In this document: piece after piece, positions 1,063 to 49,700 of the stretch
Layout of the letters: every line of letters starts with the position of its first letter
Position numbering within the stretch: position 1 is the first letter of the stretch
Assembly: GCA_044350705.1 (NCBI GenBank)
Contig: JBILHA010000001.1
Location: 177,809-241,808, forward strand
Reading direction: 5' to 3'
DNA length: 64,000 nucleotides
DNA from: Candidatus Kapaibacterium sp.
GTDB lineage: Bacteria; Patescibacteriota; Patescibacteriia; UBA9934
Translations under genes and position numbers: made by a program
The notes under the pieces: generated by a model
What the model was told of the DNA's origin: nothing
Databases searched by the model: none
Seen by the model: the letters and a program-made list of their open reading frames with translations, nothing else

Positions 1063-1334
1063 TGATGAGAAGGTCGGTAGTCTTTTTGCGGAGGAAAGAT
1101 TTATGCAGGAATATCAAGGCGTCTGGGTGAGATTTGCCGGGAACATTCGGCACATCAAAGAAGGGAGGCCACACCACTGGCGTTGCTTTGTCAACGCTCA
1201 GGGTGAGGAGATGCCTCTTACGAGCTGGCGACTTGTGGGGGAGGCCACGGCGCAGAATTTTAGGGTCGGAACAGACCCAGAGGCGAAAAATCTACTTGGT
1301 CTTTTTCAGCTATTCTGTTGCTTTACTCCAGGTA

Positions 1335-2325: not shown

Positions 2326-2550
2326 AACGGCGGATGCTCTCACGATTTTTTTCCACTGTCAAGAAATTTTTTTGGGAAAATAAAATAAAATATTGCTTCA
2401 TTTAGCAAAATTTTATCTTCAGGAGAAATGTTTTTATTGCGTTGCTGCAGTCTTTTGGGGTGGAGGGAGTATGGTTTCGAGTATAGGCGGCTGCGCTCGC
2501 TTGCTTGCCTATAGAATCCAGCGAATTCTCATCCGCTCGCCCCTACAATG

Positions 2551-2580
2551 AAAAAAATACGGAAGAATCCGTAATTTTTT
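2551..2580. terminator. Putative bidirectional terminator hairpin
   Basis: aaaaaaa-tacgga-agaa-tccgta-attttttcg: a 6-bp stem flanked by A- and T-runs, downstream of the minus-strand gene ending at 2740. Confidence 0.4.
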
Positions 2581-2739
2581 CGTGGCAGGACACATGACTG
2601 CTGAACTCAATTTTCAGAGGCGTTTAAAGGATTTTGCGAACGTTACGCTGGCAGGCAGGTACGGTGATTAGTGTGGCTTTTAAAAAAAAAACAGATGAGT
2701 ATAATTAGTTGAAATTTGTTCAATTAAACGTATCATTTT

Positions 2740-4158: not shown

Positions 4159-5880
4159 CTATTCCGTAGCAAGTGCTCCTTCTCCCGCGGGGTTGTATCC
4201 TGCTTCTACCTCAGCTTTATCATCGAATCCATCATAGTCACTGTCGGTTGAGAGGTCGCTTGAGCGGTAGAGGACCGCTTCATCGTATGCCGAGAGTCCG
4301 TCTTCATCTTCGTCGGTTTTCTTTGCTCCTTCCTCGGAGAGAAAGAGTTCAGTTGCGGTGTTTGTGCCTTTTACCACTTTTCCATAGAAGGAAAATGTAT
4401 CATCTTCCTCCCCCTTTTTTACTTCAAAGAGTAAAGTGTATCCGTTTTCGGTACGGCTATATGGATAGGGTTTTTCTGTAAAAATGTCGTTTGGAATGGT
4501 GTTTACTTTTTTATATTCATCTTCGAGGCCGATCAGATCGTTGAGAGACTCGGGATACTCCCCACGCTCCCCATGGTAGAGATCAAGTGCGGATTGAATA
4601 TCGCTTACGGTTTCGAGTTGCGTATCTTGGTTTGCAGTTTCCATATCCATTCCCACGAGAAGATTGATTGCTTCTTCGGTGGTCATGGCATCTGTAGGAG
4701 CGCTTACATTTACGGGGATATTAATACTTTCAAAGTGTATTTCGGTTTCTAAAGTAATTTGTCGATCTTTCAGGAGATCTCCTTGGAGCTTTGGGGCCAG
4801 ACGTGTTGAGAGGGCGATCATGAGAGGGGTGCCGTCATCGCGCATGGTTGCTGAGAGGTTGAGTCTCTTGAAAAGCTCGCGGTAGATATCTCTTGCACGT
4901 TCCTTTGTAGACGCTTCAATAAATTCATCGGTAAATACCATGTATTCTTCGGTTTCCGGGAAGAGTCCTTCTCGGTCATCACCAATTGCAATGACTGTTT
5001 CGCGGAGTTTTTCTCCATCGATCACTGCGGTTGTATGCCATGCGCGTTCATCCTGATAGGTTACTCGTTCTGGAACTGAGAAAATGATCGCGCCATTTTT
5101 TACTCCTTGTTCAAGAAGGGTAAAGATCTCTTCTCGTGGATCAGGGCTTTTTTCTTTCTCGTCTTCCTTTTCCTCCTCTGATTCTTCAATATCCATAAAG
5201 AAGGGGTCGGTGTACGTGAATACTTCCTCACGTTCTTCCGATTCATTTTCAAGATCAATCCATTTTCCCTCTAAGGCGCTTAAGTCCAAGATGGGAATGG
5301 GGAGAGGAATGGCATCGGGCTTGATATAGGTCGTTCCTTCCACGGTACGTGTTGTGAGATCGATGTTTGCGCTTATATTGTTTCCGGTATACGTGCCTTG
5401 TATGCGTGTTTCTTCATTTGCTCCTTCTTGTTGTTCTGCGAAAGAAGAAGTAATGGAGAGATCGAGATGAAGATCGCTTGGGAGCATTTGGAGTGTGAGC
5501 GGATTGAGTGATTCGTCATCCATTTCTTTATCTAAGAAAAGAGAGAAATCAAGAGGCTCCACATCTTCTGCGCGAGGCTCTATGGCTACATTGAGGTTTA
5601 CGGTTGTTTTTGCTGAATTGATGCTTTGTAATGTGGCAAGCATCTGTTCTGCGGTCGGGCGTTTCATGAGCGGGTTCGGAAGATAGCCTGCCCAAGCGGC
5701 ATAGCCTAATCCGGTAATAGCGCCGATACCTACGATCGTTGCTCCTGCAATAAAGATGATGCGCTTTTTGCCATGTGAGGGTTTTGATGGAGGAGGAGAG
5801 GTGGGTTGAGGAATGGGAGTGGACGGTGCGTTTTGCCCCGCGGACATCTCGGGGAGCAAGGGGGAGGGGAGTTCTGGCAT
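4159..5880 (-). CDS. Hypothetical membrane-anchored acidic protein
   Basis: Pro-rich N-terminus, then one TM helix (IIFIAGATIVGIGAITGLGYAAWAGYL). Long Glu/Asp-rich extracytoplasmic region. C-terminal DSDYDGFDD acidic motif. No catalytic motif recognised. Confidence 0.55.
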   Translation of the reverse strand: MPELPSPLLPEMSAGQNAPSTPIPQPTSPPPSKPSHGKKRIIFIAGATIVGIGAITGLGYAAWAGYLPNPLMKRPTAEQMLATLQSINSAKTTVNLNVAIEPRAEDVEPLDFSLFLDKEMDDESLNPLTLQMLPSDLHLDLSITSSFAEQQEGANEETRIQGTYTGNNISANIDLTTRTVEGTTYIKPDAIPLPIPILDLSALEGKWIDLENESEEREEVFTYTDPFFMDIEESEEEKEDEKEKSPDPREEIFTLLEQGVKNGAIIFSVPERVTYQDERAWHTTAVIDGEKLRETVIAIGDDREGLFPETEEYMVFTDEFIEASTKERARDIYRELFKRLNLSATMRDDGTPLMIALSTRLAPKLQGDLLKDRQITLETEIHFESINIPVNVSAPTDAMTTEEAINLLVGMDMETANQDTQLETVSDIQSALDLYHGERGEYPESLNDLIGLEDEYKKVNTIPNDIFTEKPYPYSRTENGYTLLFEVKKGEEDDTFSFYGKVVKGTNTATELFLSEEGAKKTDEDEDGLSAYDEAVLYRSSDLSTDSDYDGFDDKAEVEAGYNPAGEGALATE

Positions 5881-6765: not shown

Positions 6766-8007
6766 ATGGATTCTTCTGAAGATGTGTTGTTTCGTCGTGC
6801 ATTTGGTGCGGGTATTCTCGGTGCTTTTTTTGGTATAATCCTCGTCAGCGGAGGAGTATGGCTTTTGTATCAAGATCCTCGTGGAAAGTCATGGATTCAT
6901 GATCGTATTTCCTCTCTTTTGCTTACGGAGGAAGTTCCCACGATTACTGATACTACGGGAACGATTGATCCTCTTGTTTCCGTGGTTGCCGCTGCTGATC
7001 CTGCGGTTGTTTCGCTGGTGGTGACAAAGGAGGTTCCTATCTATGAGCGGTATTATGAGCGAGCCAATCCTTTCGGAGGGGGATTTTCTGGGTTCCTCAT
7101 TCCGCAGTATCGAGAGAATGGTACTCGTGAAGAGGAGGTATCGGGCGGAACGGGATTCTTCATTTCTTCGGATGGATATCTTGTAACAAATAATCACGTG
7201 ATAGATGTAGAAGAATCGTCGTATACCGTTTATCTTAATGATGGGGCTTCCTATCCTGCGAGCCTTATTGCAACAGATGCTTTGCTTGATGTAGCTCTGT
7301 TAAAAGTTGACGCGCCGGGTGTTTCATTTTCTTCGCTTTCTTTTGCTGATTCTGATAAGGCTCAAGCAGGTCAAACGGTTATCGCGATCGGAAATGCGCT
7401 CGGGGAATATCGTAATACGGTTTCTGTAGGAGTTATTTCGGGTTTGTCTCGCTCGGTGTTTGCGGCAACGACGGGAGGATCCGCGGAGCTATTGCAGGAT
7501 ATTATTCAGACCGATGCGGCGATCAACCCCGGGAATTCTGGAGGTCCGCTTCTTGATCTTTCGGGAAAGGTGATCGGGGTGAATGTTGCTGCGTCGGTAG
7601 GGAGCGCTGAGAATATTGGATTTGCTCTTCCTGCGAATGCGGTACGTGTCGCGGTAGAATCCATGAAAGAGCATGGGAAGATTCTTCGTCCATGGCTCGG
7701 GGTGCGTTATGACATGATTACTCCTGAGTTCGCGGAGAGCGCAGGATTGCCGGTGACTTTTGGAGCGCTTATTCGGAGAGGAGGGGATAATGAGCCCGCG
7801 GTTATTCCGGGTTCGCCTGCTGATAAAGCAGGGTTGGTGGAAAACGATATTATTTTGAGTGTAAATGGTGAGTTTGTGAATGATTCTCATGATTTAGGGT
7901 ATCTTCTTCGTCTTCATGCTCCTGGTGATGCTGTGGTTATTCGTGTTATGCGTGAGGGGGAAGAGCGCGAGTATCAGGTAACTCTTGAAGAGCGTCCTGC
8001 TGAATAG
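6766..8007 (+). CDS. htrA: HtrA/DegP-family serine protease with C-terminal PDZ domain
   Basis: Trypsin-like catalytic motifs GTGFFISSDGYLVTNNHV (His), D in LLDVALLKVD, GNSGGPL (Ser). C-terminal PDZ-like segment. N-terminal TM. ORF track starts at a TTG at 6748; first ATG is 6766. Confidence 0.85.
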   Translation: MDSSEDVLFRRAFGAGILGAFFGIILVSGGVWLLYQDPRGKSWIHDRISSLLLTEEVPTITDTTGTIDPLVSVVAAADPAVVSLVVTKEVPIYERYYERANPFGGGFSGFLIPQYRENGTREEEVSGGTGFFISSDGYLVTNNHVIDVEESSYTVYLNDGASYPASLIATDALLDVALLKVDAPGVSFSSLSFADSDKAQAGQTVIAIGNALGEYRNTVSVGVISGLSRSVFAATTGGSAELLQDIIQTDAAINPGNSGGPLLDLSGKVIGVNVAASVGSAENIGFALPANAVRVAVESMKEHGKILRPWLGVRYDMITPEFAESAGLPVTFGALIRRGGDNEPAVIPGSPADKAGLVENDIILSVNGEFVNDSHDLGYLLRLHAPGDAVVIRVMREGEEREYQVTLEERPAE

Positions 8008-10646: not shown

Positions 10647-10673
10647 CGCGTAGCTCCGGTCCCTTCTTTTTAC

Positions 10674-10702
10674 TTGCGAATCTTTGCGCTCCCGGCTATA
10701 CT
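10674..10702 (+). promoter_or_regulatory. Sigma70-like promoter of the ATP synthase operon (TTGCGA-17-TATACT)
   Basis: ttgcga (10674-10679), 17-nt spacer, tatact (10697-10702). Predicted TSS about 10709. First ATG of the operon is at 10711, implying a leaderless or near-leaderless first cistron. Confidence 0.45.
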
Positions 10703-10710
10703 TTCGCCAT

Positions 10711-10908
10711 ATGTTTTCTTGGCGTTTTCGCCTTGTTGCCATAGGAACCACCCTTCTTTGTGCGGGCATTGCTTTTCTTGGGACGTTTTTTTTCCTTGGA
10801 AGATCTCTTGCCCCTTCTTGGCCATATTTTTTGAGTATGGTCGTATCTGCCCTTGTTACGCAAATTATCCTTGTTTTTCTCATGCCTCGCATTGTTCGAG
10901 GGAAGTAA
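10711..10908 (+). CDS. Small two-TM membrane protein preceding atpB (AtpI/AtpZ-like, hypothetical)
   Basis: 65 aa from ATG 10711 (MFSWRFRLVAIGTTLLCAGIAFLGTFFFLG...LSMVVSALVTQIILVFLM). Two hydrophobic helices. Position is typical of atpI/atpZ. The ORF track version starts at a TTG (10684) inside the promoter. Confidence 0.4.
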   Translation: MFSWRFRLVAIGTTLLCAGIAFLGTFFFLGRSLAPSWPYFLSMVVSALVTQIILVFLMPRIVRGK

Positions 10909-10911
10909 TTT

Positions 10912-11697
10912 ATGATTGACGTCGTTCTTGCTCCACGCGAGTACGTTACCTGGGGACCTTTCATGATTACTGATGCCAATCTTGGAGCACTTATTTCCAC
11001 GTTTCTTCTCGTGCTTCTTGTTGCGTTTGGCATGAAGAAATTTACGTTGGTACCTACGCGTTTGCAGGTTATTGTGGAAGGTGCGATTGATGTGGTGTAT
11101 AGCCGATTGCTTTCTGCATTTGGTAATGATAAGGATGTTCGTTCGTTTTTACCGCTGTTCGTTTCGTTGCTCTTTTTTATTTTTGTTGCGAATCAGCTCA
11201 CGCTCATGCCGTTCATGTTTGATATTTTGTGGGGTGATGCGGCGCTTGTTCGTCAACCGACATCAGATTTATCTGGTACGATCGTTCTTGCTGCGCTTGT
11301 AGTGATTACTGCGAATATTTTGTCATTTCGTGCATCACCGTGGGGACATGCCCGTACGTTTTTTCCTCTTGATACCTTATTTCGTGCGCGATCATTTGGT
11401 GCATTTTTCCAAGCGTGTATCGATGTTGCACTTGGTCTTCTTAATATCATTGGTGAAATTGCAAAGGTTATTTCACTTTCTTGCCGTTTGTTTGGAAATA
11501 TTTTTGCAGGAAATGTTATCGTTCTTGTTTTGGCGGGCATTACCGCGTTTACGGGATACATTGTCCCCATTCCATTTCTCGTATTGAGTATCTTTTCTGG
11601 CCTTGTGCAGGCCTACGTATTTACTGCACTTTCTATGGAATTTACGCTTGGTCCTGTGCTTGGTGCGCGTGCGTATCGTGAGGCGGTGAAAAACTAA
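10912..11697 (+). CDS. atpB: F0F1 ATP synthase subunit a
   Basis: Multi-TM protein with the conserved Arg motif LSCRLFGNIFAGNVIVLVL. RBS GGGAAG 5 nt upstream. Confidence 0.9.
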   Translation: MIDVVLAPREYVTWGPFMITDANLGALISTFLLVLLVAFGMKKFTLVPTRLQVIVEGAIDVVYSRLLSAFGNDKDVRSFLPLFVSLLFFIFVANQLTLMPFMFDILWGDAALVRQPTSDLSGTIVLAALVVITANILSFRASPWGHARTFFPLDTLFRARSFGAFFQACIDVALGLLNIIGEIAKVISLSCRLFGNIFAGNVIVLVLAGITAFTGYIVPIPFLVLSIFSGLVQAYVFTALSMEFTLGPVLGARAYREAVKN

Positions 11698-11757
11698 TTT
11701 GCATTTTTTCACAAAGCCTTCATACTATATTCGTCTTAAAATTATTTTTTCCATTTT

Positions 11758-11988
11758 ATGGATGCAGAAGCAGCACGTTACATGGCAGCAGGTCTTTGTA
11801 TGGGTATTGGTTCTATCGCACCAGCACTTGCCGAAGGTTTTGTTGCAGGAAAGGCAATGGAATCCATCGGTCGTAATCCAGAGGTAAGCGATAAAATCAC
11901 CCCAACCATGATTACCGCAATGGCAATTTGTGAATCTACGGGTATTTACGCACTTATCATCTCTCTTCTTATTCTCTTCGTCGCGTAA
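11758..11988 (+). CDS. atpE: F0F1 ATP synthase subunit c
   Basis: 76 aa hairpin proteolipid: GLCMGIGSIAPALAEGFVAGKAMESIGRNPE...AMAICESTGIYALIISLLILF, with the conserved carboxylate in ICES. Confidence 0.9.
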   Translation: MDAEAARYMAAGLCMGIGSIAPALAEGFVAGKAMESIGRNPEVSDKITPTMITAMAICESTGIYALIISLLILFVA

Positions 11989-12005
11989 GCGAATTTTGCC
12001 AAGGT

Positions 12006-12503
12006 ATGGAAGCTTCGGGTATTGCAAAGCTCGGCATTAACTGGCAGAGCATGCTGCTCTACTTCGTGAACTTTGGCGTTCTCTTTTTCGTGCTCAGGCA
12101 CTTTTTAGGAAAAAAGGTGCTCGTTCTTTTGGATGAACGGAGAAATCGTATTGCCGAGAGCGTTGAAGCCGCGGATCGTTTAAAGAAAGAGGTTGAGCAA
12201 GAGCGTGGTCGATTGGCCGAGGAAATGCACGAGCTTCGTACGCAGTTTGCATATGAGACTTTGCAAATGCGCAAAGGCTTGGAAGAAGAGCGGGCAAAGG
12301 CACTTGCACATGTAGAAGAGTACCGCGCACAAGCGCTTGCCCAGGTTGAGGCAGAGGCAAAAAGTGTTCGCGCGCGCATGTTTTCCGATATGCAAGAGGA
12401 AATTCGTTCCGTTGTTGCTGAAATGACCTTGCGTATTCTTGGAGATCGTATTTCTTCAGAGGATATTGATCGAGCTGCACATAATTCGCGGAAGTCGGTA
12501 TGA
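12006..12503 (+). CDS. atpF: F0F1 ATP synthase subunit b
   Basis: N-terminal TM then long charged coiled-coil (RIAESVEAADRLKKEVEQERGRLAEEMHELR...). Position between atpE and atpH. Confidence 0.8.
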   Translation: MEASGIAKLGINWQSMLLYFVNFGVLFFVLRHFLGKKVLVLLDERRNRIAESVEAADRLKKEVEQERGRLAEEMHELRTQFAYETLQMRKGLEEERAKALAHVEEYRAQALAQVEAEAKSVRARMFSDMQEEIRSVVAEMTLRILGDRISSEDIDRAAHNSRKSV

Positions 12504-23924: not shown

Positions 23925-23978
23925 AGGGGAGTAATCCGGCGAGTAGCCGGACGGGAGGGAGTAGGGGGAGTGAGGGGA
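23925..23978. repeat. G-rich dispersed repeat copy A (GGGGAGTRR units + ccggc-gagta-gccgg hairpin core)
   Basis: gggagtaatccggcgagtagccggacgggagggagt is shared exactly with the copy at 35718-35753. Flanked by GGGGAGT(G/A)(A/G) units. Confidence 0.5.
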
Positions 23979-23985
23979 TTGGATT

Positions 23986-24354
23986 TCATTCAGCACGAGA
24001 TTCCTCGTTTGAAGGTTCTTTGAGAACTACAAGATCTGCTTGAGGGAAAGAAAGGGAGCTGAGAGGGATGGTTTTTTCTCGGATTGCTCCGATCCAATAG
24101 GTTTTCCGTTCAATGAATCCAATTTCAAAATGTTCTTCAGAAAGGATGCATTCAAGGGTGAGGGCGTAGCTTTCATCTTCGGTGTAAAACCAAAAGCGGT
24201 CGTCATCTCCGGTTCGTTCAAGATCCATGCATTTTCCGAGGATATATTCATTTTCATTCGCCTCAAAGCGTGTTCCGGGAACACAGGCGGTCTTCAAACG
24301 CTGTGCAAGATCCTCTGAAATGAGGATGGTCCCATCAATATTGCGTGCCCACAT
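23986..24354 (-). CDS. Hypothetical protein
   Basis: 122-aa ORF, no recognisable motif. Convergent with the Clp-like gene. Confidence 0.35.
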   Translation of the reverse strand: MWARNIDGTILISEDLAQRLKTACVPGTRFEANENEYILGKCMDLERTGDDDRFWFYTEDESYALTLECILSEEHFEIGFIERKTYWIGAIREKTIPLSSLSFPQADLVVLKEPSNEESRAE

Positions 24355-24403
24355 AGATAGTATTTAGTTTGACGTCTTCTCTTTAAAATGTCTACTCTGC
24401 TGT

Positions 24404-25435
24404 ATGCCTTTGTGGATTTATCCTGTTATTTTAGCAGCATTTGCCTGCTCTGCTGGAGGGGTTTTTTTCTGTATGAATCTTGCTCAACAGTGGAAGGTTT
24501 TGGATGTGCCGGCATTACCGAAGAAGGTCCATGATGTTCCTACCCCTTTATGGGGAGGTGTTGCTCCTTTTCTTCTCTTTATCCTTTTTGCAGGAGTGGT
24601 AGAGCTAACCACAGGATTTTTTACCTCTGGTTCACTTGCTTCTCAAACTCTGTGGGGATTTTTTGGTGCACTTCTCATTTTGGTTGGAGGGGGCATGTGG
24701 GATGATGTGAAGGCGCTTCCTCCGCGTGTTTCTTTTTTATTTCCTTTTCTTGCCGCTCTTCTTGCGGTTGCAGCGGGAATGGGAGTGAGCAAGGTTACCA
24801 ATCCTTTTGGAGGTGCTTTTGTGGTCGCGTCATCTCTTTCGGTGGTTATTACTTTTTTGTGGCTATTGGGCGTAACGTACACCACTAAGCTTTTAGATGG
24901 CGTAGACGGTCTTGCAACGGGCGTGGGGATGGTTGGTGCGGTGATGATTGCGGCGCTTACGTTAAGCGAACGTTGGTACCAGCCGGATATTGCCCTTCTC
25001 TCTCTTCTTTTTTTTGCGGTTCTTCTCGGGTTCTTTTTATGGAATAGCGCACCTGCGAAGATTTTTCTTGGCGAAGCCGGGAGTACCGCGATTGGGTTTA
25101 CTCTTGGCGCCCTCGCCGTGATGGGAGGAAGCAAATTTGCAACGCTTTTGCTTGTTGTTGGTCTTCCAGCGCTTGATGTGGCCTTTGTGATGGTGCGAAG
25201 AATTTTGGTGAGGAGATCGCCTTTTCAAGGAGGGGATGGGTTTCATTTTCATACGGTACTTCGGAAATGTGGATGGTCTGCACGCAAGATTGTTGCGCTC
25301 TACATGGCCACCGCTTTTATTTTTGGAGCAACTACACTTCTTTTTGTTTCTTGGCAGAAGCTGCTTGCGTTGGCAGTTTTGGGGGGTGGCGCTCTTGTTG
25401 CCATGATTGTTTTTGCAAGAAAGGCAGAGGGATAG
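24404..25435 (+). CDS. MraY/WecA-family polyprenyl-phosphate sugar-1-phosphate transferase
   Basis: Polytopic membrane protein with family motifs LLDGVDGLATGV and IFLGEAGSTAIGFTLG. A His-rich loop DGFHFH is suggestive of MraY, but MraY versus WecA not resolvable by eye. Confidence 0.7.
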   Translation: MPLWIYPVILAAFACSAGGVFFCMNLAQQWKVLDVPALPKKVHDVPTPLWGGVAPFLLFILFAGVVELTTGFFTSGSLASQTLWGFFGALLILVGGGMWDDVKALPPRVSFLFPFLAALLAVAAGMGVSKVTNPFGGAFVVASSLSVVITFLWLLGVTYTTKLLDGVDGLATGVGMVGAVMIAALTLSERWYQPDIALLSLLFFAVLLGFFLWNSAPAKIFLGEAGSTAIGFTLGALAVMGGSKFATLLLVVGLPALDVAFVMVRRILVRRSPFQGGDGFHFHTVLRKCGWSARKIVALYMATAFIFGATTLLFVSWQKLLALAVLGGGALVAMIVFARKAEG

Positions 25436-25491
25436 CTTTTTTTGGGAGATTTGCTACCCTTGTGCTGCCCAATTTCAAGGAGGGCAGGATC

Positions 25492-26448
25492 ATGAGTCTG
25501 TATCAGCTTCGTACGGTTTCTCTGGACGATCTCCGTTCCATTGGTTCCGGCGTTCTCGTTCGGCAGATTCTCCGGGATGATTTCCTCCTGGTCGAGGGGG
25601 CTGCATCGGAGCAGCTCATGGACGACGCTGAGGGTCTCACTCAGCGTCTGTTCACCGAGTGGTCTCTCTGGGAGCTGGAGGAGCGGTACGGTCGTCCCAG
25701 TCTCCGTCGCCAGCGTGGTCTCACGGCCAAGCTGGGTGTGGAGCAGGCGGCTGCTCGCCCGGGTGAGAAGGAACGTCCTCCGGGGGACATGAAGGTCTTC
25801 GGCATGTTCCGGATGGAAGAATGGCCTGACAACATGGCCGTGGATGCGCCGTTCGGTCCCAACCTCTGGCCGGATGAGATCTTGCCGGAATTCAAGCCGG
25901 TCATGCTGCGGCACATGCAGGCGCAGATGGATGTCTACATGGCGGTGCTCGGTGCTCTGGAGGAGGCCTATGGCTTCTCGCAGGGTTTCCTGCAGCGCAT
26001 GGCACGTGGCGCTGAATCTGTCGCTCGCAACATCTTCTACCCGGGGTCTGATCTCCTTGCGCAGTGGGGGATCGAGGTTCCGGAAGGTGCACTGCAGTCT
26101 GCTCCGCACGAGGACATCAACGGCTGTACCGTGCTTCGGCTCAACAAGGGGTTGTATCTTCAGCGCCATGATGAATGGAAGCGGGTGGATACCTCGAACC
26201 GCAGGGCCTTTGGGGTCAATGTCGGTGAGATGATCTGCAAGGTGGCCGGGATCGATGATCTTGTCCCCACCACGCACTGCGTCGGTGCGCCTCCAGGTGT
26301 TTTCGACCCTGAAGCCGAGATGCTCCAGCGGATGCCGCGTGTGGCCATTCTGCTCTTCGGTCACTTCCTTCGTTCGACTGAGCTCAGGCCTGGTCTTCGA
26401 ACGGGGGACTGGTTCGACCAGCGTATTCAGGAGATCACCCAGGGTTGA
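25492..26448 (+). CDS. 2OG-Fe(II) oxygenase superfamily protein (IPNS-like), high-GC gene
   Basis: Starts MSLYQL with RBS AAGGAGG 7 nt upstream. Putative HxD...H iron triad (APHEDINGCTVL ... TTHCVGAPPG). Codon usage strongly GC3-biased, ~62% GC against a ~49% background. Confidence 0.5.
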   Translation: MSLYQLRTVSLDDLRSIGSGVLVRQILRDDFLLVEGAASEQLMDDAEGLTQRLFTEWSLWELEERYGRPSLRRQRGLTAKLGVEQAAARPGEKERPPGDMKVFGMFRMEEWPDNMAVDAPFGPNLWPDEILPEFKPVMLRHMQAQMDVYMAVLGALEEAYGFSQGFLQRMARGAESVARNIFYPGSDLLAQWGIEVPEGALQSAPHEDINGCTVLRLNKGLYLQRHDEWKRVDTSNRRAFGVNVGEMICKVAGIDDLVPTTHCVGAPPGVFDPEAEMLQRMPRVAILLFGHFLRSTELRPGLRTGDWFDQRIQEITQG

Positions 26449-26555
26449 GGAGGGAGCCCGTGTTTCGTCGAGGGGAGTGTTTCTGGCCTGAAGAAGGCTG
26501 GGGACGCTCCCCGTTGAGTTTCTGGAGAAAATTTGGCATGCTTTTTATCGAAAAT

Positions 26556-27014
26556 ATGACGATGAAACAAAAAATTCTTGCAGGAAGCATGCTTCTCTTG
26601 GTGAGCGTTGCGGGTTTTATAGCTTGGTCGTTTCAGACGTCTGTCGAACGTATTTCTATTAATGGTACTGAGTTTACCGTGCGTGTTGCCGAGCGACCTT
26701 TTGCGCAAAAGAAGGGTTTATCGGGATATACTGAGGAGAGTTTGCAGGAAGAGGGGATGCTTTTCTTGTTTTCTGAAAGTAAAGTGCGAGAGTTTTGGAT
26801 GAGGGGCATGGAGTTTGATCTTGATATTTTATGGATTGCTGATGGAAAGATTGTGGCGATTGATCGAGATGTTGATGCGCCTTATTCGCGCAATGACGAG
26901 CCTGAGCGCGCTACGTCTAGTCCGTTAAAAGTGAATGCGGTTTTGGAGCTTCCTGCCGGAAAGGCCGATGAGTTGGGTCTTGTGGAAGGTATGACCATGG
27001 TGGTTCTCGAATAA
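26556..27014 (+). CDS. DUF192-domain protein (secreted/membrane-anchored)
   Basis: N-terminal TM/signal (MKQKILAGSMLLLVSVAGFIAW). DUF192-like core (MLFLFSESKVREFWMRGMEFDLDILWIADGKIVAI...VLELPAG). Confidence 0.55.
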   Translation: MTMKQKILAGSMLLLVSVAGFIAWSFQTSVERISINGTEFTVRVAERPFAQKKGLSGYTEESLQEEGMLFLFSESKVREFWMRGMEFDLDILWIADGKIVAIDRDVDAPYSRNDEPERATSSPLKVNAVLELPAGKADELGLVEGMTMVVLE

Positions 27015-27037
27015 AAAGGCAAATCACAGCCATTTTC

Positions 27038-27066
27038 TTGACGATTTGGGACGAGAATGCTATAGT
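27038..27066 (+). promoter_or_regulatory. Sigma70-like promoter upstream of rplU (TTGACG-17-TATAGT)
   Basis: ttgacg (27038-27043), 17-nt spacer, tatagt (27061-27066). Leaves an ~80-nt leader before the rplU ATG. Confidence 0.4.
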
Positions 27067-27148
27067 CTTGCCGTCAATTCTTAGCGGTTTGTCCAGGGTA
27101 TGCAAGTCTTATAGACATCGTTTATAAGCACCCGCGCAACCAATTTCT

Positions 27149-27463
27149 ATGATGCACGCAGTTATTACCACCGGCGGCAAGCAATACCTCGTTGCTGAAG
27201 GTGAAACCATTCAGGTAGAAAAGCTTACGGCTGAAGCTGGTGAAAAGATCCAGTTTGATGCCATGCTTGTTACCAATACGGAAGGTACGGATGTACGCGT
27301 TGGAACTCCTCTTGTTTCTGGCGTAAAAGTAAGTGCCGTTGTTGCTGAGCATGGTCGCGGAGAGAAGATCTCTGTAATTAAGTACAAGCGCAAGGCTCGT
27401 TACCGCCGCAATGTTGGTCATCGTCAGCCATTTACGATGCTTACCATCGAAAAGATTGCATAA
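27149..27463 (+). CDS. rplU: 50S ribosomal protein L21
   Basis: MHAVITTGGKQYLVAEGETIQVEKL...ISVIKYKRKARYRRNVGHRQPFTMLTIEKI. Not followed by rpmA. Confidence 0.9.
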   Translation: MMHAVITTGGKQYLVAEGETIQVEKLTAEAGEKIQFDAMLVTNTEGTDVRVGTPLVSGVKVSAVVAEHGRGEKISVIKYKRKARYRRNVGHRQPFTMLTIEKIA

Positions 27464-27504
27464 AAAATTCCCTTCGGATATATCCGAAGGGAATTTTTAT
27501 TTTC
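27464..27504. terminator. Rho-independent terminator after rplU (bidirectional)
   Basis: aaaaaa-ttcccttcggatatatccgaagggaa-tttttatttt, an 11-bp perfect stem. Confidence 0.65.
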
Positions 27505-40722: not shown

Positions 40723-43700
40723 ATGGTGCTTTTCCCCTCTTCTTTTTCTCGTTTCTCGCGTTTTTTGAAAGTTCTCGGAGGATCGATCTTTATTCTTACG
40801 TTTATTCTTCTTTCGCCTTTTTGGTCTGAAGCTGCCGCATGTCCGGTTACCGATGGAGGCGTGGGAGATGGTGATGGTTCTGCGAATGGAACTCTAACGA
40901 TTAATGCGAGTACTTCCTGGACTCCTCCTGCAACGCGGGGCGATTTTTGGGATTGTACGGGGAAGACGGTTCATGTAACAGGTGGTGCTACGTTGACTTT
41001 TTCAACGGTAACTACCTCGGGTCGTTTCGGTTATTTGAAAGCGGATAACATCATTGTTGATGCGGGGTCGGCTATTTCTTCCGATGGCCTTGGCTGTTCC
41101 GTGAGCTCTCCTGGATGGGGATTTGGGCCGAATGTCACTACGGGTATTTGTACCTTGGAAACAACGGGAGCTGGACGTGGTGGTAGTGGTAGCGGATATT
41201 CTCCTGCTTCGGGTAGTTATGGTGGGCTTGGTGGATATGGAGGAAGCCCTTCTTGGCTCGCGGGAAGTGTTTATGGTGATCCTATTTCCCCCATGCTTTT
41301 TGGGTCTTCTTCTGGTGATACGAACTATGAAGATTCTGGTCCTGGAGGAGGTGTTGTTTGGTTGCACGCTACCGATACGCTCACGTTAGATGGCACGATA
41401 TCTGCACGAGGACTTGCAGGTGCTTCTGCTGCGGCGGGTGCAGGATCTGGCGGATCCATTCTTTTGTTAGCTCAAGTTATCGATGGAACAACTGGTGCTT
41501 TGAATGCCGAAGGTGCGGATGGAAAGTCGAGTGGATCGGGAAGGTTTAGCGGCGGTGGTGGTGGTGGAAGGGTATCCGTTCTTTATGGTACAGATTCGAG
41601 TTCTTGGCTTGGTTCGCTATCCCCGTCGACCGTTGTTTCGGGGGGTCTTTCTTCTGGTGGTACGAGCACTGCGGGTGAAGATGGCACTGTTTATAAAAGC
41701 GCTTCATACGATCCTGCGATCGCGTTTGCCACTATTTCTGATAGTGATGCTGATTATCAAGTCGATACGATTACCATTACTTTTGATCGAGATTTAGATG
41801 GCGCTACAGTTGCCATGAGTGATTTTTCTCTTGATGGTGGATATACTATTACTTCCGCTTCCGAAACTTCAGCTGGTGTTGTTACTTTAACGGTTGCTGA
41901 GCGCGGATATGTTGATGTTGAGCGCTCGATTACCATTTCTCTTGTAGGAAGTGTTACTGATACCATGTTTGGACTTTCGTCGTCGAGCGACGTGTACTAT
42001 GCGGTTTCTTCGACATGTCCATTCTTTGATGGCTCTCCAGACGATGCAGATTTGGCAAGAAATGGTTCGTATACCATTGCAGAAGCAGTTCAGCTCACTC
42101 CATCGCCATATCGCCTGAACTGTGAAGGTTTAGATTTGGTTGTGAATAGTACCGTCACTTTTGCAGGAAGTGTTTCTACGGGCGATTATTCTCATTTGCG
42201 TGCTGACGATATTACGTTGGGATTTGGTGGGGTATTTTCTGCAACAGAAAGGGGATGTCAGGGACTTGCACAATCAGCCCATGAGCCTGGTTTGGATAAT
42301 ATTTGTGGTGCAAGTGCACTTTCTTCTGGAAATGGAAGTAGCGGAGCGGGAGGTGGTGGTATTAGTCAGGCGCGTGGTGGTGGAGGAGGATACGGTGGAA
42401 ATGGAGGGCAGGGTGGTTCAGCAGCTGCACTTGCAGGATTTTTAGGAGGTACGAGTTACGGTTCCTCAACGACGCCATTGCTGTTTGGTTCTACGGGAGG
42501 TGGTACAACGGGTAGCCGGGGTGGACATGCGGGAGGTATTGTTGCCATTACCGCTTCTGGTACGTTTACCTGGAACGGATCCATTCTTTCTCAAGGAGGA
42601 AATGGTACGGGAACGAGCGGATCTGCGGCTGGTGGAGGTGGATCGGGTGGATCGGTGTATATTCAGGCCGCAACGCTTGCGGGAAGTACGGGTTCTGTTT
42701 CTGCTGCTGGAGGGAATGGATATAGTGGAAGTTCGGTGAATGGTGGTGGAGGTGGAGGAGGACGTGTTGCTATTTATTACGGTACAGATTCTACATCGTT
42801 TGTAAGTGGATTGAGTGCGGCAGGTGTTGCAGCAGGTGGAACTGGTCCTTCTGCTGCCGCTGAAGGTACCGCGGGAAGTTTGTATACGTCGGCTACCTAT
42901 ACCGCTGCTGCTCCGGAAGCTATTGAAGGTTTTACTCGAGATGCTGATACAGATGGCTATTTAGATGCCATTGTTTTACTTTTTACTGAAGATCTTGATG
43001 CTGCATCACTTGCGACGACTGATTTTTCGGTGACGGGATATACAATTACCGGCGTTGCGCTTACTTCCGGTAATGTTGTAACACTTTCACTTCAAGAAGG
43101 CGGAACTCCTGATACATCTGCAATTCCGGCTACTTCTATCGTTGGATCGATTAGCGGTGCAACGTCGGGAACGATTACTTCGGGAAGTTTTGTTATGAAT
43201 GATGAGGCGTACCCGGTTGCGATGTCGGCTTCATATTTGGATACGAATGTGAACGGTGCAGTTGATCGTGTAGATATTGTTTTTTCTGAAACCATCACCT
43301 TTAGCTATAACTCTGGTGATTGGACTTTTCCCGATGCGGGTTCGTTTAATTTAGTAGATACCACTTTCGCAGTAACTACGAATACGCTTCGTCTTACGGT
43401 TACTGCAGATGCTGAAGAGACGAGTTCTAGTACAACGCCGACTGTTTTATATACAAATACTGCAAATCGCTTGCAGGATGCTTCTGGAAACTTTACCGCA
43501 ACATTCCCTTCGGCGTTATCTATTTCCGATGCTGCTGCGCCAGCAATTAATGCCATGACTACGGGAGATGCAAATAGTGATGGATATATTGATACATTAA
43601 TATTTGTATGGACTGAAAATGTTGATACCAATGATGGAGCCCCTCCTGTTCTTGCTGACTTTGGTACGATTACCATGCCAAACGGAGGTACTGCATCGAG

Positions 43701-46700
43701 TGCGACGATTAGTGACCCTGGGGGAATTTCGAATACGGTTACTCTCACAAACGTAACTGGACAAACGAATATTTTTACGGGTACTACAAGCGTTGCGATT
43801 AATGGGATTACAGGGCAGTGGAGTGATGGCACGAACCTTACGACGAATCCTGACGATTCTGAAACAGTTATCGATGCCGCTTCGCCGATTATTCGTACGG
43901 ATGGTGCGAACGCTCCTCGTTATGAAGATAGTAATAGCGATGGAACTATTGATCGTATCCGTTTAATTTTTTCTGAAAATACCACCATTACGTATACTGA
44001 TGCGGATTGGACCATTACGCCAAACGCATTAACGAGCGCTGATGTTTCGGCAGTTTCTTCGGGAAGCGGTACGACGACGGTTTATTTAACCGCTACAGCT
44101 CAATCGCTTTTGACGGGTGTTGGTACTGGCACGGTTCCTACGCTTTCATATGCGCAAAGTTCTGGCTCGGTTGCTGATGCAACAGGCAACCAACTTGCTA
44201 CGGTATCCGGTGTCAATCTTGTCGACTTTGCGAATCCTCGTTTGCGAACGGATTCTGGTAATCAAATGGCGTATCAAGATGCTGATGCGAATGGCAGCAT
44301 AGATCGTGTTCGTTTGATATTTACAGAGCCGGTTACGATTACCTATGTTGATGCAAACTGGGTTTCTGTGGCGAACTCACTTACGGGTTTTGATGTCGGT
44401 GCGCTTTCTTCGGGAAATGGAACATCAACGGTCTATCTTACCGCTACGACATCTTCTGCAACAACAGGTGTTGGCGCGGGAACGCAGCCTACCCTTCGCT
44501 TTACCGCGGGAAGTGGGGGAAGTATTGTTGATAGTGCTTCTAACGCACTTGCTTCTATTGCAGCCACTTCTCTTATTGATGAAGCGTTGCCGATTTTGCT
44601 TACTTCTCGATACCGCGATATTAACTACAACGCTACGGTAGATCGGTTTGATCTTACTTTTTCTGAAACCATGACCGTTGCTACGTGTGAAACGGGAGAT
44701 TATACCCTTTCGGGAAGTGACGCTTCGGGCGTTTCGGTGGCGTCGTGTTCTGCTACGGGTGCCGTGGTTGAGCTTACGCCCTCAGGTATTCCTGCAAATG
44801 ATACTTCGTTAACATTGGCCCTTTCGTATAATGCATCTGCGGGTACGGCGAATAGTTTGCGCGACGGTGCTGCAAATGGCGTTGCATCTTTTTCCTCGGT
44901 TTCGCTTGCTGATGCAACCTCACCCGTGCCTCTTGGTGGGGTTTCTCGCGATGTAAATAGTGATGGCACCGTAGATAGAGTTGTCGTTTCTTTTTCGGAG
45001 AATGTTACGGCAGCACATTGCGATGCAGCTGATTACACATTCTCAGGCACGCATGCGAGTGGTTTAGCGATTAGTGCATGTAGCCCTTCTGGACAAGATA
45101 TTTCGTATACACTCACTGGAGCTCCAGTTGCAAATACTGCGTTAAGTTTTTCGTGGACCTATACTCAGGCGGCGGGAACGGCAAATAGTTTAGCTGATGA
45201 TATTGGAAATGTGATTCCTAATGTCACTCTTGCAGTTACCGATGCCGCTGCGCCGGTTATCATTTCCGGTTCTTATACTGATGGCAATGGAGATGGAACA
45301 GTAGATGCGGTTTCTCTTGGTTTTTCTGAAGCGGTAACTGTCACGTATGACGATGGTGACTGGATAGCCAATGCTCGTGATTTAACGGGCTTTGATGTTA
45401 CAGGACTTACTTCTGGATCGGGAACTTCCTCACTTGTTTTTTCAGCAACGTCATCCTCGGTTACGGGTGTTGGCGCTTTGGGTGACGAGCCTACGCTTCG
45501 TTATACCGATGGCGCAGGTTCGCTTACGAGCGCGACGGGGGAGACCCCGTTGTCTATTAGTGCATTTACCCTTGCCGATAATGCAGATCCGTTGATTGTT
45601 TCTGGTGCGTATCAAGATGACAATGGGAACGGAACGGTTGATCTCGTCGTGCTTTCATTCACCGAGCCATTGGATTATGCCGCTTGTGAGGTTGGAGATT
45701 TTTCTTTTGCGGGTGCTGATGGATCGGGATTGTCGTTTTCTTCGTGCTCTGCAGGGTCCGGGGTTGATGGGGAATTTGTGCTTAATGGCGCTCCTTCTCT
45801 TGAAACAACGCTTGATATTGATCTTTCCTATAATGCGCTTGCCGGGCTTGCGAGCAGCTTAGTTGATAGCGAAGGAAATGCGCTCCCTTCATTTAGTGCC
45901 CTGAGTATTGACGATGAAGCGACACCCGTTCTTCTTTCTTCGTCTTATCAAGATGCTAATGCTGACGGTCGGGTTGATCGTGTCGCCTTGCAATTTTCTG
46001 AACCGGTTACGCTTACGTATGCAGATGGCGATTGGACAGCTATTGCGAACGGCTTGGTAAGTTTTGATGTCACAGGTATTCATTCGGGAAATGGTAGCGC
46101 TACCCTTCTTCTTTCTGCTACGGCGATGGCGGATCGTACGGGTGTTTCCTCTATTTCTTCTCAACCGCAACTTTCATTTACTGCGACCACAGGAAGTTTG
46201 GTTGATGCGGTTGGACAGGCGATTACTTCCTTAAGTACGTTTTCCGTTGCCGATGCGGCGGCCCCAGTTATTATTAGTGGTTCGTATGTAGATAGTGATA
46301 GCGATGCGGAGGTTGATCGTGTGCAATTGTTGTTTACGGAAGAGACGACGATTAATTTTGCTCTTGCGGATTGGACGGTTTCTTCAGGGGATCTCACGGG
46401 ACTTGCGATTTCTGCGATTGCTTCAGGGAATGGCAATGCGCTTATTTCTTTTGATGCATCTGCTGCTGCGGAGTTAACGGGAGTAGGTGCTGGTATTGAA
46501 CCGACATTAACATATCTTCCTGTTACGGGTTCAGTTGCTGATCGTTACGCTAATGCGCTGGTTTCTTCCGGACCGCATTCGCTTGTTGATGCCGCTGATC
46601 CGGTTTTGTTGAGTACAAATCCATCGCATAGTGAGTTGCATGTTGATCGAGATGCTGATGTTGTACTTTCTTTTTCTGAAGCTATGGATATCAATACATT

Positions 46701-49700
46701 TGCGTATGATATTTCCAATGCCGGTGTTTCTGAAGGTATTACGTGGGATGCCGATGAACGTATCGCAACGATTGATTTTGTATCAACACTTCCTGAAGAA
46801 ACGGTTATTACTGTTGAGGTGACCTTGGCCACGGACTATACGGGAAACGGATTCTCTCTTCTTGCGGGTATCGATAATCCTTTCTCATTTACTACAGCGG
46901 GTGCCATTATTAACCCCGTCCTCACCTCCGGATCTACACGCGACACTGATAATGACGGAAAAATAGATGCAATTGTTCTCTCCATCGATCAAGATATTAA
47001 TGGACTTACGGTTGCTGCTGCTGACTTTACGGTGACGGGCTACACCATTTCTTCTGCTTCTCGTACGGCTTCTGGTCAAATTACCCTTGTTCTCACCGAA
47101 GGAGGCTCTCTTGATACCGATGCTCGACCAGTAGTACAGGTCGTTGGTTCTGTAGATGGAGTATCTTCTGGTTTTCTTACCTCTGGAAGTATTACTCCGG
47201 CTGACGGTGCCGCACCTCTTGTGGTTTCTGGAGCGTATAAAGATAGTAATGCCGACGGTACGGTAGACCGTGTTGAAGTGTTGTTCTCCGAACCTCTTTC
47301 TTACAGCGCTTGTGAATACAGCGACTTCTCCTTTGGCGGCGCTGATGGGGCAGGGTTTTCTGTAAACGGTTGTGCAGCAGGGAGCGGTGATTACGGAGTA
47401 TTTGCTCTTGCAGGAGCTCCTAGTGGAGATACCTCGCTTACGCTTACCTTCTCGTACACCGCATCTCTTGGAACCACGAACAGTCTTGATGACGCTGCAG
47501 ATAACGCACTTCCTACGTTCTCTGCACTTGCACTTGCTGATGAAGCTCTTCCTGCACGACTTTCTAGTGCATACCAAGATGCTAATGCTGACGGTACGGT
47601 TGACCGTGTAGAACTTGTCTTCTCTGAAGCGGTCACGCTTACCTATGCAGATGCTGATTGGACGGCAACGGCTCATGGACTCACCGGATTTGATGTTACT
47701 GGCATTGCTTCTGGTAACGGTACGGATACCTTGTACCTTACGGCAACGGCAAGTGCTCATGTTACGGGTATTGCTGAGGAGGCAAGTCAACCAACGCTTG
47801 CTTTTACGGCAACGACGGGAAGCTTGGTTGACGGTGAAGGTTCCGCACTCTCTTCACTCACTACATTTGTTCTTCTCGATGATGCTGCTCCTGTTTTGCG
47901 AAGCGATATTGAAAGCGTATATCGTGATACTTCAGGAAATGGTGTTGTTGATCGTGTTGTCTTGCGTTTTACTGAAGATGTTAATGCGACGTACGATGCC
48001 GTAGATTGGGCTGTTACGGAAAATGACTTAGCAGGTCTTACAATTACGAGTGCGTCTGCCGGCTGGGCCTCTACAGTAAGTCTTACGGCTACCGCTGATG
48101 GTGTTCAGACGGGTGTTGGTCTTGGCGCAGAGCCGGGAATTGCTTTTTCTCCCGCGCTTGGTCAAATTGTCGATCGCTCAGGTAATGTGGTCAGTGCTTT
48201 TTCTCGCACGCTCGTTGATGATGCTTCGCCGCTTCTTGTAAGCTCTTCACCCCTTCATGGTGCAACGGGTGTTGCTCTTGATACGAACATTGTTCTTTCA
48301 TTTAGTGAAACAATGGATATCAATAACTTCTCTTTTTCTCTTTCTGAAGTTGTTGCGGGTGAAAGCTTGGGATGGAATGCGGCAGAAGATGAAATTACCA
48401 TTGAATATGCTGATAATTTTGAGTATGAAACTGAATATACGGTCTCACTTCTTGCCGCTCCTGATCTTGCGGGTAATGCGCTTGGCGGTGCATTAATCGG
48501 TTCTGCAAATCCTTTTAGCTTCACGACACTCTCCATTGTTGTGCATCCTGTCCTCACCTCTGGATCTACTCGAGATACCGATAACGATGGAAAGATAGAC
48601 GCCATTGTTCTCTCCATCGATCAAGACATTAATGGATTAACGGTTGCTTCTTCAGATTTTTCGGTGACGGGCTATACCATTTCTTCTGCTTCTCGTACGG
48701 CTTCTGGTGAAATCACTCTCGTTCTCACCGAAGGAGGTTCTCTTGATACCGATGCTCGACCGGCAGTACAGGTTGTTGGTTCTGTAGATGGAGCATCTTC
48801 TGGTTTTCTTACCTCTGGAAGTATTACTCCAGCTGACGGTGCCGCACCTCTTGTGGTATCTGGAGCGTATAAAGATAGCAATGCCGACGGTACCGTAGAT
48901 CGTGTTGAAGTATTGTTCTCCGAACCTCTTTCTTACGGCGCTTGTGAATACGGTGACTTCTCCTTTGGTGGTGCTGATGGGGCAGGGGTTTCTGTAGCGT
49001 CTTGTGGTTCGGGGGATGATGCCTATGGAATCTTTATTCTTTCTGGAACTCCAAGTAACGACACTTCTCTTGAGCTTACGTTTACGTATGCGGCATCTGC
49101 GGGAACTGCAAATAGCCTTGATGACGCTGCAGACAACGCACTTCCTTCCTTCTCTGCACTTGCACTTGCCGACGAAGCTCTTCCTGCACGGCTTTCTAGT
49201 GCATACCAAGATGCTAATGCTGACGGTACGGTAGACCGTGTAGAGCTTGTCTTTTCTGAAGCGGTTACGCTTACCTATGCCGATGCTGATTGGACGGTAA
49301 CGGCTCATGGTCTCGCTGGATTTGACGTTACAGGCATTGCTTCTGGAAACGGCACCGATACTTTGTACCTTTCGGCAATGGCGAGTGCGAATACGACCGG
49401 AATTGGTGAAGAGGATAGTCAGCCAACGCTTGCTTTTACGGCTACGACGGGAAGTTTGGTTGCGCTAGTTGGCGGCTCCGCTTTGCCTGCACTTTCCTCA
49501 TTTTATCTCTCCGATGAGGCGGCTCCTCGCATGATTTCTGGATCGTATTTTGATGAAAATGCTGATGCGCGTGTTGACGCAATGGATATTCTTTTTACTG
49601 AACCTGTCGATGTTCCATTTTGTGAATCCGAAGATTATGCATTTACTGGTGATGATGTGGGATCTCTCGTCGTAATTACATGCCCTGGGGAATCCGCTTC

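Follow-up and report, generated by a model that had tools for sequence, protein, structure and literature searches.

A GC-rich oxygenase gene in groundwater Patescibacteria that appears to be an old chromosomal resident

The 64-kb stretch of contig JBILHA010000001.1 analyzed here (the window) contains a gene, called OXY below, that is much richer in G+C than the DNA around it and whose product resembles iron- and 2-oxoglutarate (2OG)-dependent oxygenases. The question raised by this locus is whether such an island marks a gene acquired very recently from a high-GC donor, as a first-pass annotation of the sequence had proposed. Compositional islands are routinely read as recent transfers and dated by amelioration; the model of Lawrence and Ochman is said to treat them as recent horizontal gene transfer (HGT) that is followed by amelioration. 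The analysis favors another reading, with a probability of about 0.55. OXY would be an old resident gene for an isopenicillin N synthase (IPNS)-like oxygenase and a recombining cassette, whose G+C content at third codon positions (GC3) is upheld by a GC bias linked to recombination, possibly together with selection for mRNA stability. OXY would then be a warning case, an old resident with the composition of a new arrival.

A one-gene GC island in a conserved neighborhood

OXY has a GC content of 0.604 (0.693, 0.423, and 0.696 at the first, second, and third codon positions, respectively) in a window with an overall GC of 0.476. Sliding windows of 957 nt elsewhere have a GC of 0.475 ± 0.025 and a maximum of 0.537, which places OXY 5.2 standard deviations (SD) higher, and the top five GC windows across the 64 kb (starts 25521-25571) all lie on OXY. 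The GC3 of the 48 other open reading frames (ORFs) of the window is 0.433 ± 0.056, with 0.54 in the highest real gene, and OXY lies approximately 4.7 SD out, beyond the distribution of the genome around it. In a 100-nt profile, the GC rises from 0.51 to 0.61 over positions 25450-25550 and falls from 0.59 to 0.41 over 26400-26500, showing that the island coincides with the OXY ORF. GC at second codon positions is unchanged, so that the anomaly is essentially synonymous. A at third positions (A3) drops to 0.04, against a background of 0.20, and A-ending codons nearly vanish (GGA 0/29, CAA 0/17, AAA 0/7). Codons ending in C or G are increased, with GGT, CGT, GCT, and TCT still common, and in GC-rich OXY the CGG codon takes 29-56% of arginine codons. 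The compositional part of the first-pass annotation therefore stands: its GC of approximately 62% for the gene is near the peak of 0.61 in the profile, the island spans exactly one gene, the GC3 outlier is real, and the composition returns to background in the host-like DUF192 gene downstream. Its genome-wide figure of about 49% GC compares with a measured 0.476 for the window.

The OXY subfamily is small. Exhaustive searches of 1.84 and 5.8 billion proteins gave only a few dozen relatives, in clusters of one or two members each. Most of these relatives are on short metagenomic contigs, and throughout what follows the counts are small and synonymous sites are near saturation. The closest relatives are 45-55% identical to OXY, and all of them are located directly between GT4, a glycosyltransferase gene, and DUF192, which is also the position of OXY in the window (slot A). 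They are L002 (SRR33557408), L003 (ERZ27247837), L004 (GCA_021733325.1), L005 (CAYPWV01), L006 (Patescibacteria metagenome-assembled genome H41-bin180_1), and L007 (Hainich H41 groundwater). A genome scan using GT4 returned only two loci, the window's own genome not being among them, and a metagenome scan with a 7-sequence alignment returned one partial locus. L005 (CAYPWV010000009.1) is titled "uncultured Gammaproteobacteria bacterium," a label that is probably wrong: its gene order is of the Patescibacteria type, and its ClpB, GT4, and L21 are 83%, 70%, and 85% identical to those of the window.

Identity between the window and L002 is 75% for GT4, 63% for DUF192, and 55% for OXY, and between L002 and L004 it is 92%, 89%, and 71%, respectively. 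In comparisons of the window with other lineages, the synonymous divergence (dS) is 1.3-1.8 in the flanks and 1.2-2.7 or saturated in OXY; against L002 and L005, the identity at 4-fold degenerate sites is 0.35-0.40 in OXY versus 0.37-0.44 in the flanks. The divergence estimates leave out the rows for the 5' fragment of L006, which were one base out of frame. More distant Patescibacteria carry the gene in the same neighborhood at another position, after L21 (slot B). This is the case in the 586-kb contig P0016 (JGI 3300050046) and in GCA_018062825.1 (L011, labeled "Patescibacteria group bacterium"), where the neighborhood reads ClpB–GT4–DUF192–…–L21–OXY–DUF305/RecR–YbaB–DnaB–amino-acid transporter–FolD–SHMT. 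In P0016, GT4 and DUF192 are adjacent, with an 18-nt gap, a CAP-domain gene is situated between DUF192 and L21, and OXY is found 2 kb away, after L21; only this much more distant genome has GT4 and DUF192 adjacent. This gene order indicates that OXY changed slot inside one conserved neighborhood.

The presence of OXY in the same slot in diverged lineages, and a divergence that keeps step with that of its flanks, do not support recent HGT. The sequences point instead to a long-retained chromosomal resident of groundwater Patescibacteria, the candidate phyla radiation (CPR), and the very recent acquisition from a high-GC donor that had been proposed is rejected, given six lineages with the gene in the same slot and a flank dS of 1.3-1.8.

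A mosaic interior and the probable maintenance of high GC3

The flanks of L002, L004, L006, and L007, including intergenic DNA, are 80-100% identical, whereas the OXY ORFs between them are only 50-76% identical. Between L002 and L004, dS is 1.36 in OXY versus 0.52 in GT4 and 0.38 in DUF192, and the nonsynonymous divergence (dN) is 0.24 versus 0.04-0.06 in the flanks. The borders are abrupt: identity is approximately 95% through the ribosome-binding site (RBS) and the first ~8 codons, the sequences then become unalignable, and identity returns to approximately 95% from ~45 nt before the stop codon. The two ends of the ORF (first ~8 and last ~15 codons) are conserved and of host-like class, and the segment 5' of OXY that carries the RBS has a host-like GC and can be aligned with L002, L004, L005, and L006. 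This pattern suggests that the interior of the ORF is a mosaic cassette, whose alleles would replace one another by homologous recombination within the conserved ORF ends and flanks.

O-antigen and capsule genes and the central regions of flagellins are hypervariable loci of allelic replacement with conserved flanks; they are usually AT rich and specify surface structures. OXY is similar to them in that its alleles are far more diverged than the near-identical flanks, with abrupt borders and an atypical composition. It differs from them in being one GC-rich gene for an enzyme of cytoplasmic type, and diversifying selection is not shown at OXY, where dN/dS is 0.18-0.3.

Two of the alleles have peculiarities of their own. 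At 688-690, the reading frame of the L004 allele is interrupted by one TAG codon, where others have Tyr or Phe (…EEH*GRPELL…), which makes it a pseudogene or reflects a sequencing error. In the L007 allele (2-325), ~13 codons are inserted and residues are changed immediately ahead of the conserved C terminus (…RRGAFRHPHTGRMLKALWVGHWFDQRIREITTG), and this allele may be degenerating.

Raised GC3 recurs across the subfamily. The GC3 of OXY is 0.78 in L002 (neighbors 0.33-0.39), 0.79 in L004 (0.43), 0.875 in L011 (0.45-0.52), 0.84 in L008 and 0.875 in L010 (both with neighbors at ~0.6), and 0.54 in L013 (~0.40). For L005 and L007, the overall GC is 0.56-0.59 and 0.64-0.66, against flanks of 0.45-0.47 and 0.43-0.50, respectively. 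In L003, GC3 is 0.41 and not elevated, with the ORF and the catalytic residues intact. Between L002 and L004, the 4-fold sites of identical residues are near-randomized (identity 0.39 versus 0.33 expected, n = 90), and the GC content of 4-fold sites (GC4) is nonetheless 0.72 and 0.78 in these two alleles.

Synonymous changes were polarized by parsimony with outgroups. The ratios of changes from G or C to A or T (S→W) to those in the opposite direction (W→S) are 4:4, 10:7, 2:6, and 6:7 in L002 and L004; L003 has 17-31:2-4, according to the outgroup chosen, and L005 has 9-19:6-9. AT-biased neutral decay at the GC3 of L002 and L004 would by our own estimate give about 6:1. Taken with the AT-ward counts in L003, the balanced changes and the high GC4 at near-randomized sites indicate that some lineages retain a high GC3 and others have lost it, and that it is more than a fading relic. 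In the relatives, high GC3 is a recurring synonymous-site property of the whole subfamily and not an unameliorated trace; the same presumably applies to the window's own allele, in which the direction of change is not polarizable. A two-state amelioration model, which is our own arithmetic with the measured dS and a donor GC3 of 0.95, predicts a GC3 of 0.54-0.60 for the window, where 0.70 is observed, and of ~0.54 for L002, where 0.78 is observed.

Some other genes on the contigs of relatives also have raised GC3. In L011, these are a NUDIX gene at 10660-11193 on the minus strand (0.775) and ORFs at 11288-12046 and 4901-5419 on the plus strand (0.68 and 0.60). The interval from the amino-acid transporter to FolD, which is empty in the window, contains the GC3-rich genes of L011, and these are apparently insertions. 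In L008, a 326-amino-acid (aa) ORF at 204-1184 (plus strand) has a GC3 of 0.89 and an mRNA-structure z score of −3.4, and a 77-aa ORF at 7003-7236 (plus strand) has a GC3 of 0.77.

The folding of the mRNA was evaluated by comparing each allele with its own synonymous-codon shuffles (24 shuffles per gene). The alleles of the window, L011, and L010 gave z scores of −2.27, −2.46, and −3.66, with 0/24 shuffles as stable in each case, and block-wise shuffles gave −1.9, −3.4, and −3.6. The unrelated GC3-rich ORF in L008 gave −3.39, the ameliorated L003 allele +1.11, and seven neighboring control genes −1.24 to +1.12 (Mann-Whitney p = 0.018).

The reading favored here brings these observations together as follows. 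OXY alleles would be swapped by homologous recombination via the conserved ORF ends and flanks, and a GC-favoring process tied to recombination, like GC-biased gene conversion (gBGC), would hold the GC3 of the gene 30-40 points over that of the genome. Selection favoring an mRNA that folds stably may contribute. Once this force fails, as in L003 and to some extent in L005, the gene would decay to the composition of the host with its protein intact. GC-ending, non-optimal codons have been reported for recombining bacterial genes (Lassalle et al. 2015, PMC4450053), and OXY resembles those genes in its raised GC3, signs of recombination, and largely non-optimal GC-ending codons. OXY differs from them in that the excess amounts to +27 to +40 GC3 points in one gene and extends across deep divergence. 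Translational optimization was also considered and is unlikely, given that ribosomal L21 and other housekeeping genes are not GC3 rich and that CGG, which is enriched, is a non-optimal codon; the depletion of A3, the enrichment of CGG, and the ordinary GC3 of L21 point to GC pressure and not to tRNA adaptation.

Several observations weigh against this reading. The GC3 effect described by Lassalle and colleagues for recombining genes is reportedly of a few points on average, and the excess of +0.27 to +0.4 in OXY would be about an order of magnitude above those averages. Recombination is deduced from mosaic borders in a few short metagenomic contigs, with few alleles and saturated synonymous sites, and the flanks of L002, L004, and L006 cover only 0.4-1 kb per side, their identity of ~90% being assumed to be the genome-wide level. 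The polarization by parsimony is noisy at nearly saturated sites, with small counts. For the window allele, the rejection of an ancient transfer is moderate and not overwhelming (0.54-0.60 versus 0.70). L011 and L008 have further GC3-rich genes with the look of accessory insertions, which hints at a GC-rich flexible gene pool. Finally, the folding signal of L002 is weak or absent (z scores of −1.07 and −0.46), though this is the allele with the clearest stationarity, so that mRNA stability cannot be the whole story.

A broader proposal, which we advance tentatively and would sooner doubt than accept, is that some Patescibacteria hold a small set of genes, with the OXY subfamily as the clearest case, at a GC3 equilibrium of their own that exceeds the genome by 30-40 points and lasts long enough for synonymous sites to saturate. 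These genes would be hypervariable cassettes exchanged by recombination, and a strong gene-specific GC drive (gBGC-like or mRNA selection) would mimic fresh HGT. Were such an equilibrium to exist, the amelioration clock used for dating transfers would be broken, and if the pattern held genome-wide, ultra-small bacteria would be subject to a strong GC drive that acts on particular genes.

Among the explanations that compete with a recombining old resident, repeated import from an unsampled GC-rich reservoir (a flexible gene pool, host organisms, or higher-GC Patescibacteria) stands up best and is still unlikely. It would fit the hyper-elevated divergence with sharp mosaic borders, the GC3-rich lineage-specific insertions (the NUDIX gene and a 252-aa ORF in L011, the 326-aa ORF in L008), and the higher-GC backgrounds in which the L008 and L010 members are found. 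However, exhaustive searches of 1.84 and 5.8 billion proteins brought up, among the few dozen members, no close copy in any high-GC genome, and all members with known context are in Patescibacteria-like loci. Moreover, replacement through the conserved ORF ends requires donors that already have the same locus, and OXY distances roughly follow those of the flanks.

Selection on the mRNA (stability, structure, or expression control) as the main force on GC3, with recombination incidental, comes next and is likewise improbable. The greater stability of the GC3-rich window, L011, and L010 alleles relative to their synonymous shuffles agrees with it, as does the excess structure of the unrelated L008 ORF, which L003 and the controls do not show. 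Against it, the signal is weak or absent in L005 (−0.83) as well as in L002, the latter with a GC3 of 0.78 and balanced substitutions, and the replicates and genes are few. A structural constraint should also slow synonymous change and not triple it.

Third, with a small chance of being correct, is an ancient one-time transfer into an ancestral Patescibacterium from a donor of very high GC (a Myxococcota-like lineage, for instance), with nothing but slow neutral amelioration since then. Canonical relatives do occur in high-GC phyla, decay toward AT is seen in L003 and L005, the T-ending 4-fold codons of the window (GGT, CGT, GCT) could be products of C→T decay, and the GC3 gap between model and observation is modest for the window. 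The larger gap for L002 is difficult to reconcile with decay alone, as are the mutual randomization of L002 and L004 at 4-fold sites with GC4 at 0.72-0.78 and S→W and W→S changes in balance, and the GC3 of 0.875 in the far more distant L011 beside genes at 0.45-0.52. An ancient transfer also fails to account for the threefold dS relative to the flanks and for the abrupt mosaic borders.

The very recent transfer of the first-pass annotation, in which no amelioration has yet occurred, is left with very little probability. OXY does share with a classical compositional island a single gene of strongly atypical GC3 and codon usage with sharp borders, and its more distant homologues include high-GC Myxococcota. 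Unlike such an island, it is old and syntenic in diverged lineages, having diverged together with its flanks, it has no donor or mobility signature, and in some lineages its GC3 is stationary even though synonymous divergence is near saturation. The closest homologues, which were to reveal the donor clade, turned out to be the syntenic copies in Patescibacteria; relatives without this synteny reach at most 46% identity, and those in Myxococcota (Kofleriaceae, Myxococcales, and Polyangiales) are only ~30% identical and belong to another clade. In a neighbor-joining tree, the subfamily is separated from the canonical enzymes of Myxococcota and Pseudomonadota in 100/100 bootstraps. No flanking direct or inverted repeats were found at OXY, no integrase or tRNA is present at its borders, where the neighbors are housekeeping genes, and no copies of OXY were found in viral contigs, plasmids, or phages. 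Of the hallmarks of genomic islands, OXY thus shows the atypical composition and codon usage and lacks absence of the site in relatives, a matching donor clade, and mobility signatures. A mobile element, an integron cassette, and a diversity-generating retroelement were each considered and discarded, with no flanking or template repeats, no Rfam match, and no mobile copies.

The identical OXY protein is present in a 190-kb NCBI contig of GCA_041445565.1, in a 509-kb JGI contig, and in the Logan assembly of SRR27421204, although the NCBI and Logan assemblies were possibly built from the same reads. An assembly chimera, in which DNA of a high-GC organism would have been fused to a Patescibacteria contig, was a concern of the first-pass annotation and has only the sharp compositional borders in its favor; at the level of assemblies it can be dismissed, as Logan contig L001 shares 100% identity with window positions 23933-27492 over 3,560 bp, across both junctions, the NCBI and JGI contigs agree in gene order around OXY, the RBS and the OXY ends run on into conserved flanks, and the GT4–OXY–DUF192 synteny recurs in six other lineages from other samples.

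The predicted oxygenase

The AlphaFold2 model of OXY (pLDDT [predicted local distance difference test] score of 90.4; predicted template modeling [TM] score of 0.91) presents a double-stranded beta-helix (DSBH) core and an N-terminal alpha/beta half of the DIOX_N type, as the Foldseek comparisons also indicate. A Foldseek search with this model against the PDB gave 227 matches at an E value of ≤1e-3, and the best 50 of these (E ≤ 2e-14) are all oxygenases of the 2OG/IPNS class. The lead match is 3oox (E = 3.4e-18; TM score, 0.72-0.75), and matches between 3e-18 and 1e-14 include, besides 3oox, thymine-7-hydroxylase (T7H), TraH, ethylene-forming enzyme (EFE), GA2ox, and IPNS. A profile of the subfamily matches 3oox (1.4e-45) and 3on7 (5.7e-37) over the full length and T7H at 8e-32, with the HxD…H and R(x)S motifs in register between the profile and 3oox and 3on7. 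Scans of the OXY protein alone against Pfam and NCBIfam gave no match above threshold. Within the subfamily, PF14226 is matched in 13 of the 15 members and PF03171 in 8, and homologues with ~30% identity to OXY carry DIOX_N and 2OG-FeII_Oxy. The cluster with the identical protein is named "isopenicillin N synthase-like dioxygenase" in JGI/IMG.

H206, D208, H262, and R283 are invariant in alignments of 13 and 15 sequences, and the 2-His-1-carboxylate facial triad is recognized by alignment. H206, D208, and H262 would hold the iron, and R283 would hold 2OG. The arginine of the RxS motif in the IPNS-like class binds the C5 carboxylate of 2OG. The serine position of this motif is occupied by alanine (Ala285) in the window, and by alanine in L002 and L004, whereas L003 and the canonical enzymes have serine. 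With the arginine invariant but the serine replaced, the use of 2OG by OXY is likely. The dN/dS of OXY, at 0.10-0.32, indicates purifying selection. The peptides APHEDINGCTVL and THCVGAPPG, on which the first-pass annotation had based a 2OG-Fe(II)-oxygenase-like protein with an HxD…H triad, are both present in the translation, and fold, profile, and invariant residues agree with that assignment. Together they support a predicted divergent IPNS-like Fe(II)/2OG oxygenase, and from its fold and motifs, the enzyme would carry out a putative O2-dependent oxidation of a substrate.

Among the best Foldseek matches (TM score, ~0.72-0.75) are two uncharacterized bacterial IPNS-like oxygenases, CC_0200 of Caulobacter (PDB 3oox) and SO_2589 of Shewanella (PDB 3on7), which have the same DIOX_N-type N-terminal half, DSBH C-terminal half, and placement of the motifs. 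They differ from OXY in that identity is only ~20-30% and OXY by itself falls below the Pfam and NCBIfam thresholds. Furthermore, OXY has HCVG.PPG where these proteins have HRVVNP, and RVA for RYS, and it has an additional insert at residues ~88-100 and a distinctive C terminus, RSxELRPGLxxGDWFDQRIxEIT. Thymine-7-hydroxylase (5c3p), EFE (9ovh), TraH (9ig5), IPNS (1bk0), and the plant 2OG-dependent dioxygenases share the fold and the metal and co-substrate motifs but are only 13-22% identical, and their substrate-binding residues are not kept in OXY, so that no substrate can be transferred to it by homology.

Patescibacteria are generally regarded as fermentative. OXY defines a rare and very divergent Patescibacteria subfamily of predicted O2-dependent Fe/2OG oxygenases, and it is a lead on the use of oxygen by groundwater lineages. 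Nothing was found in the literature on IPNS-like oxygenases of Patescibacteria or on persistent GC3 islands in the CPR.

Coordinates and further features of the window

The features of the locus are listed in Table 1. GT4 is syntenic in all slot-A loci. The hairpin downstream of OXY is in the 113-nt spacer 3' of the stop codon; its stem ends, GGGGAG…CTCCCC, are kept in L002, L004, L005, and L007, and an Rfam search of the hairpin matched no family.

Table 1. Positions in the window of OXY, its functional parts, and its neighbors
Feature	Position	Strand	Basis or remark
GT4, family-4 glycosyltransferase (WecA/MraY-like), upstream flank; host-like, GC3 ~0.40	24404..25435	+	PF00953, E = 5e-29
Shine-Dalgarno-like RBS AAGGAGGG, 7 nt before the OXY ATG	25477..25484	+	Read from sequence
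OXY, oxygenase ORF, ATG to TGA, 957 nt, 318 aa	25492..26448	+	ORF list and composition
GC-rich OXY interior (approximate); hyper-divergent and mosaic among L002, L004, L006, L007	25520..26400	+	Identity profile, boundary alignments, 100-nt GC profile
H206-E207-D208 codons, HxD part of predicted 2-His-1-carboxylate triad	26107..26115	+	Alignments; equivalent to HEDIN of 3on7 and HGDIN of 3oox
H262 codon, predicted distal iron-binding His	26275..26277	+	Aligned to H of tHrV in 3oox and 3on7
R283 codon, Arg of RxS motif	26338..26340	+	Alignments
18-pair GC-rich hairpin, terminator-like, weak T tail	26472..26512	+	Hairpin scan, alignment
DUF192 protein, downstream flank	26562..27014	+	PF02643, E = 1.9e-22; start from NCBI gene call

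A 354-aa antisense ORF (25300-26364) covers OXY and was rejected as a functional gene. It is broken in L002, L004, L008, L003, and L013, and the antisense frame can be open only when the sense codons include no TTA, CTA, or TCA, which makes it a by-product of the A3 depletion. Between ClpB and GT4, a 122-aa ORF on the minus strand (23986-24354) belongs to no Pfam family; it is absent in L005, where the ClpB and GT4 ORFs overlap, and is probably a lineage-specific insertion. On the other side of the locus, a perfect 18+18-nt palindrome (AAAAATTCCCTTCGGATA/TATCCGAAGGGAATTTTT, 27463-27498) separates the convergent L21 gene from the ORF that comes next on the minus strand and resembles a bidirectional terminator.

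Elsewhere in the window, a low-GC outlier region is found at 2501-3500 (GC 0.36-0.39), with a minus-strand ORF at 2740-3732 (GC 0.372, GC3 0.305) whose sole Pfam match, to DUF3850, is below threshold. A giant ORF of 3,542 aa (40723-51351, plus strand) contains bacterial immunoglobulin-like Big_5 domains (E = 3e-28) and looks like a large surface protein; its composition by codon position is unusual, with a GC of 0.545 at second positions and a GC3 of 0.326.

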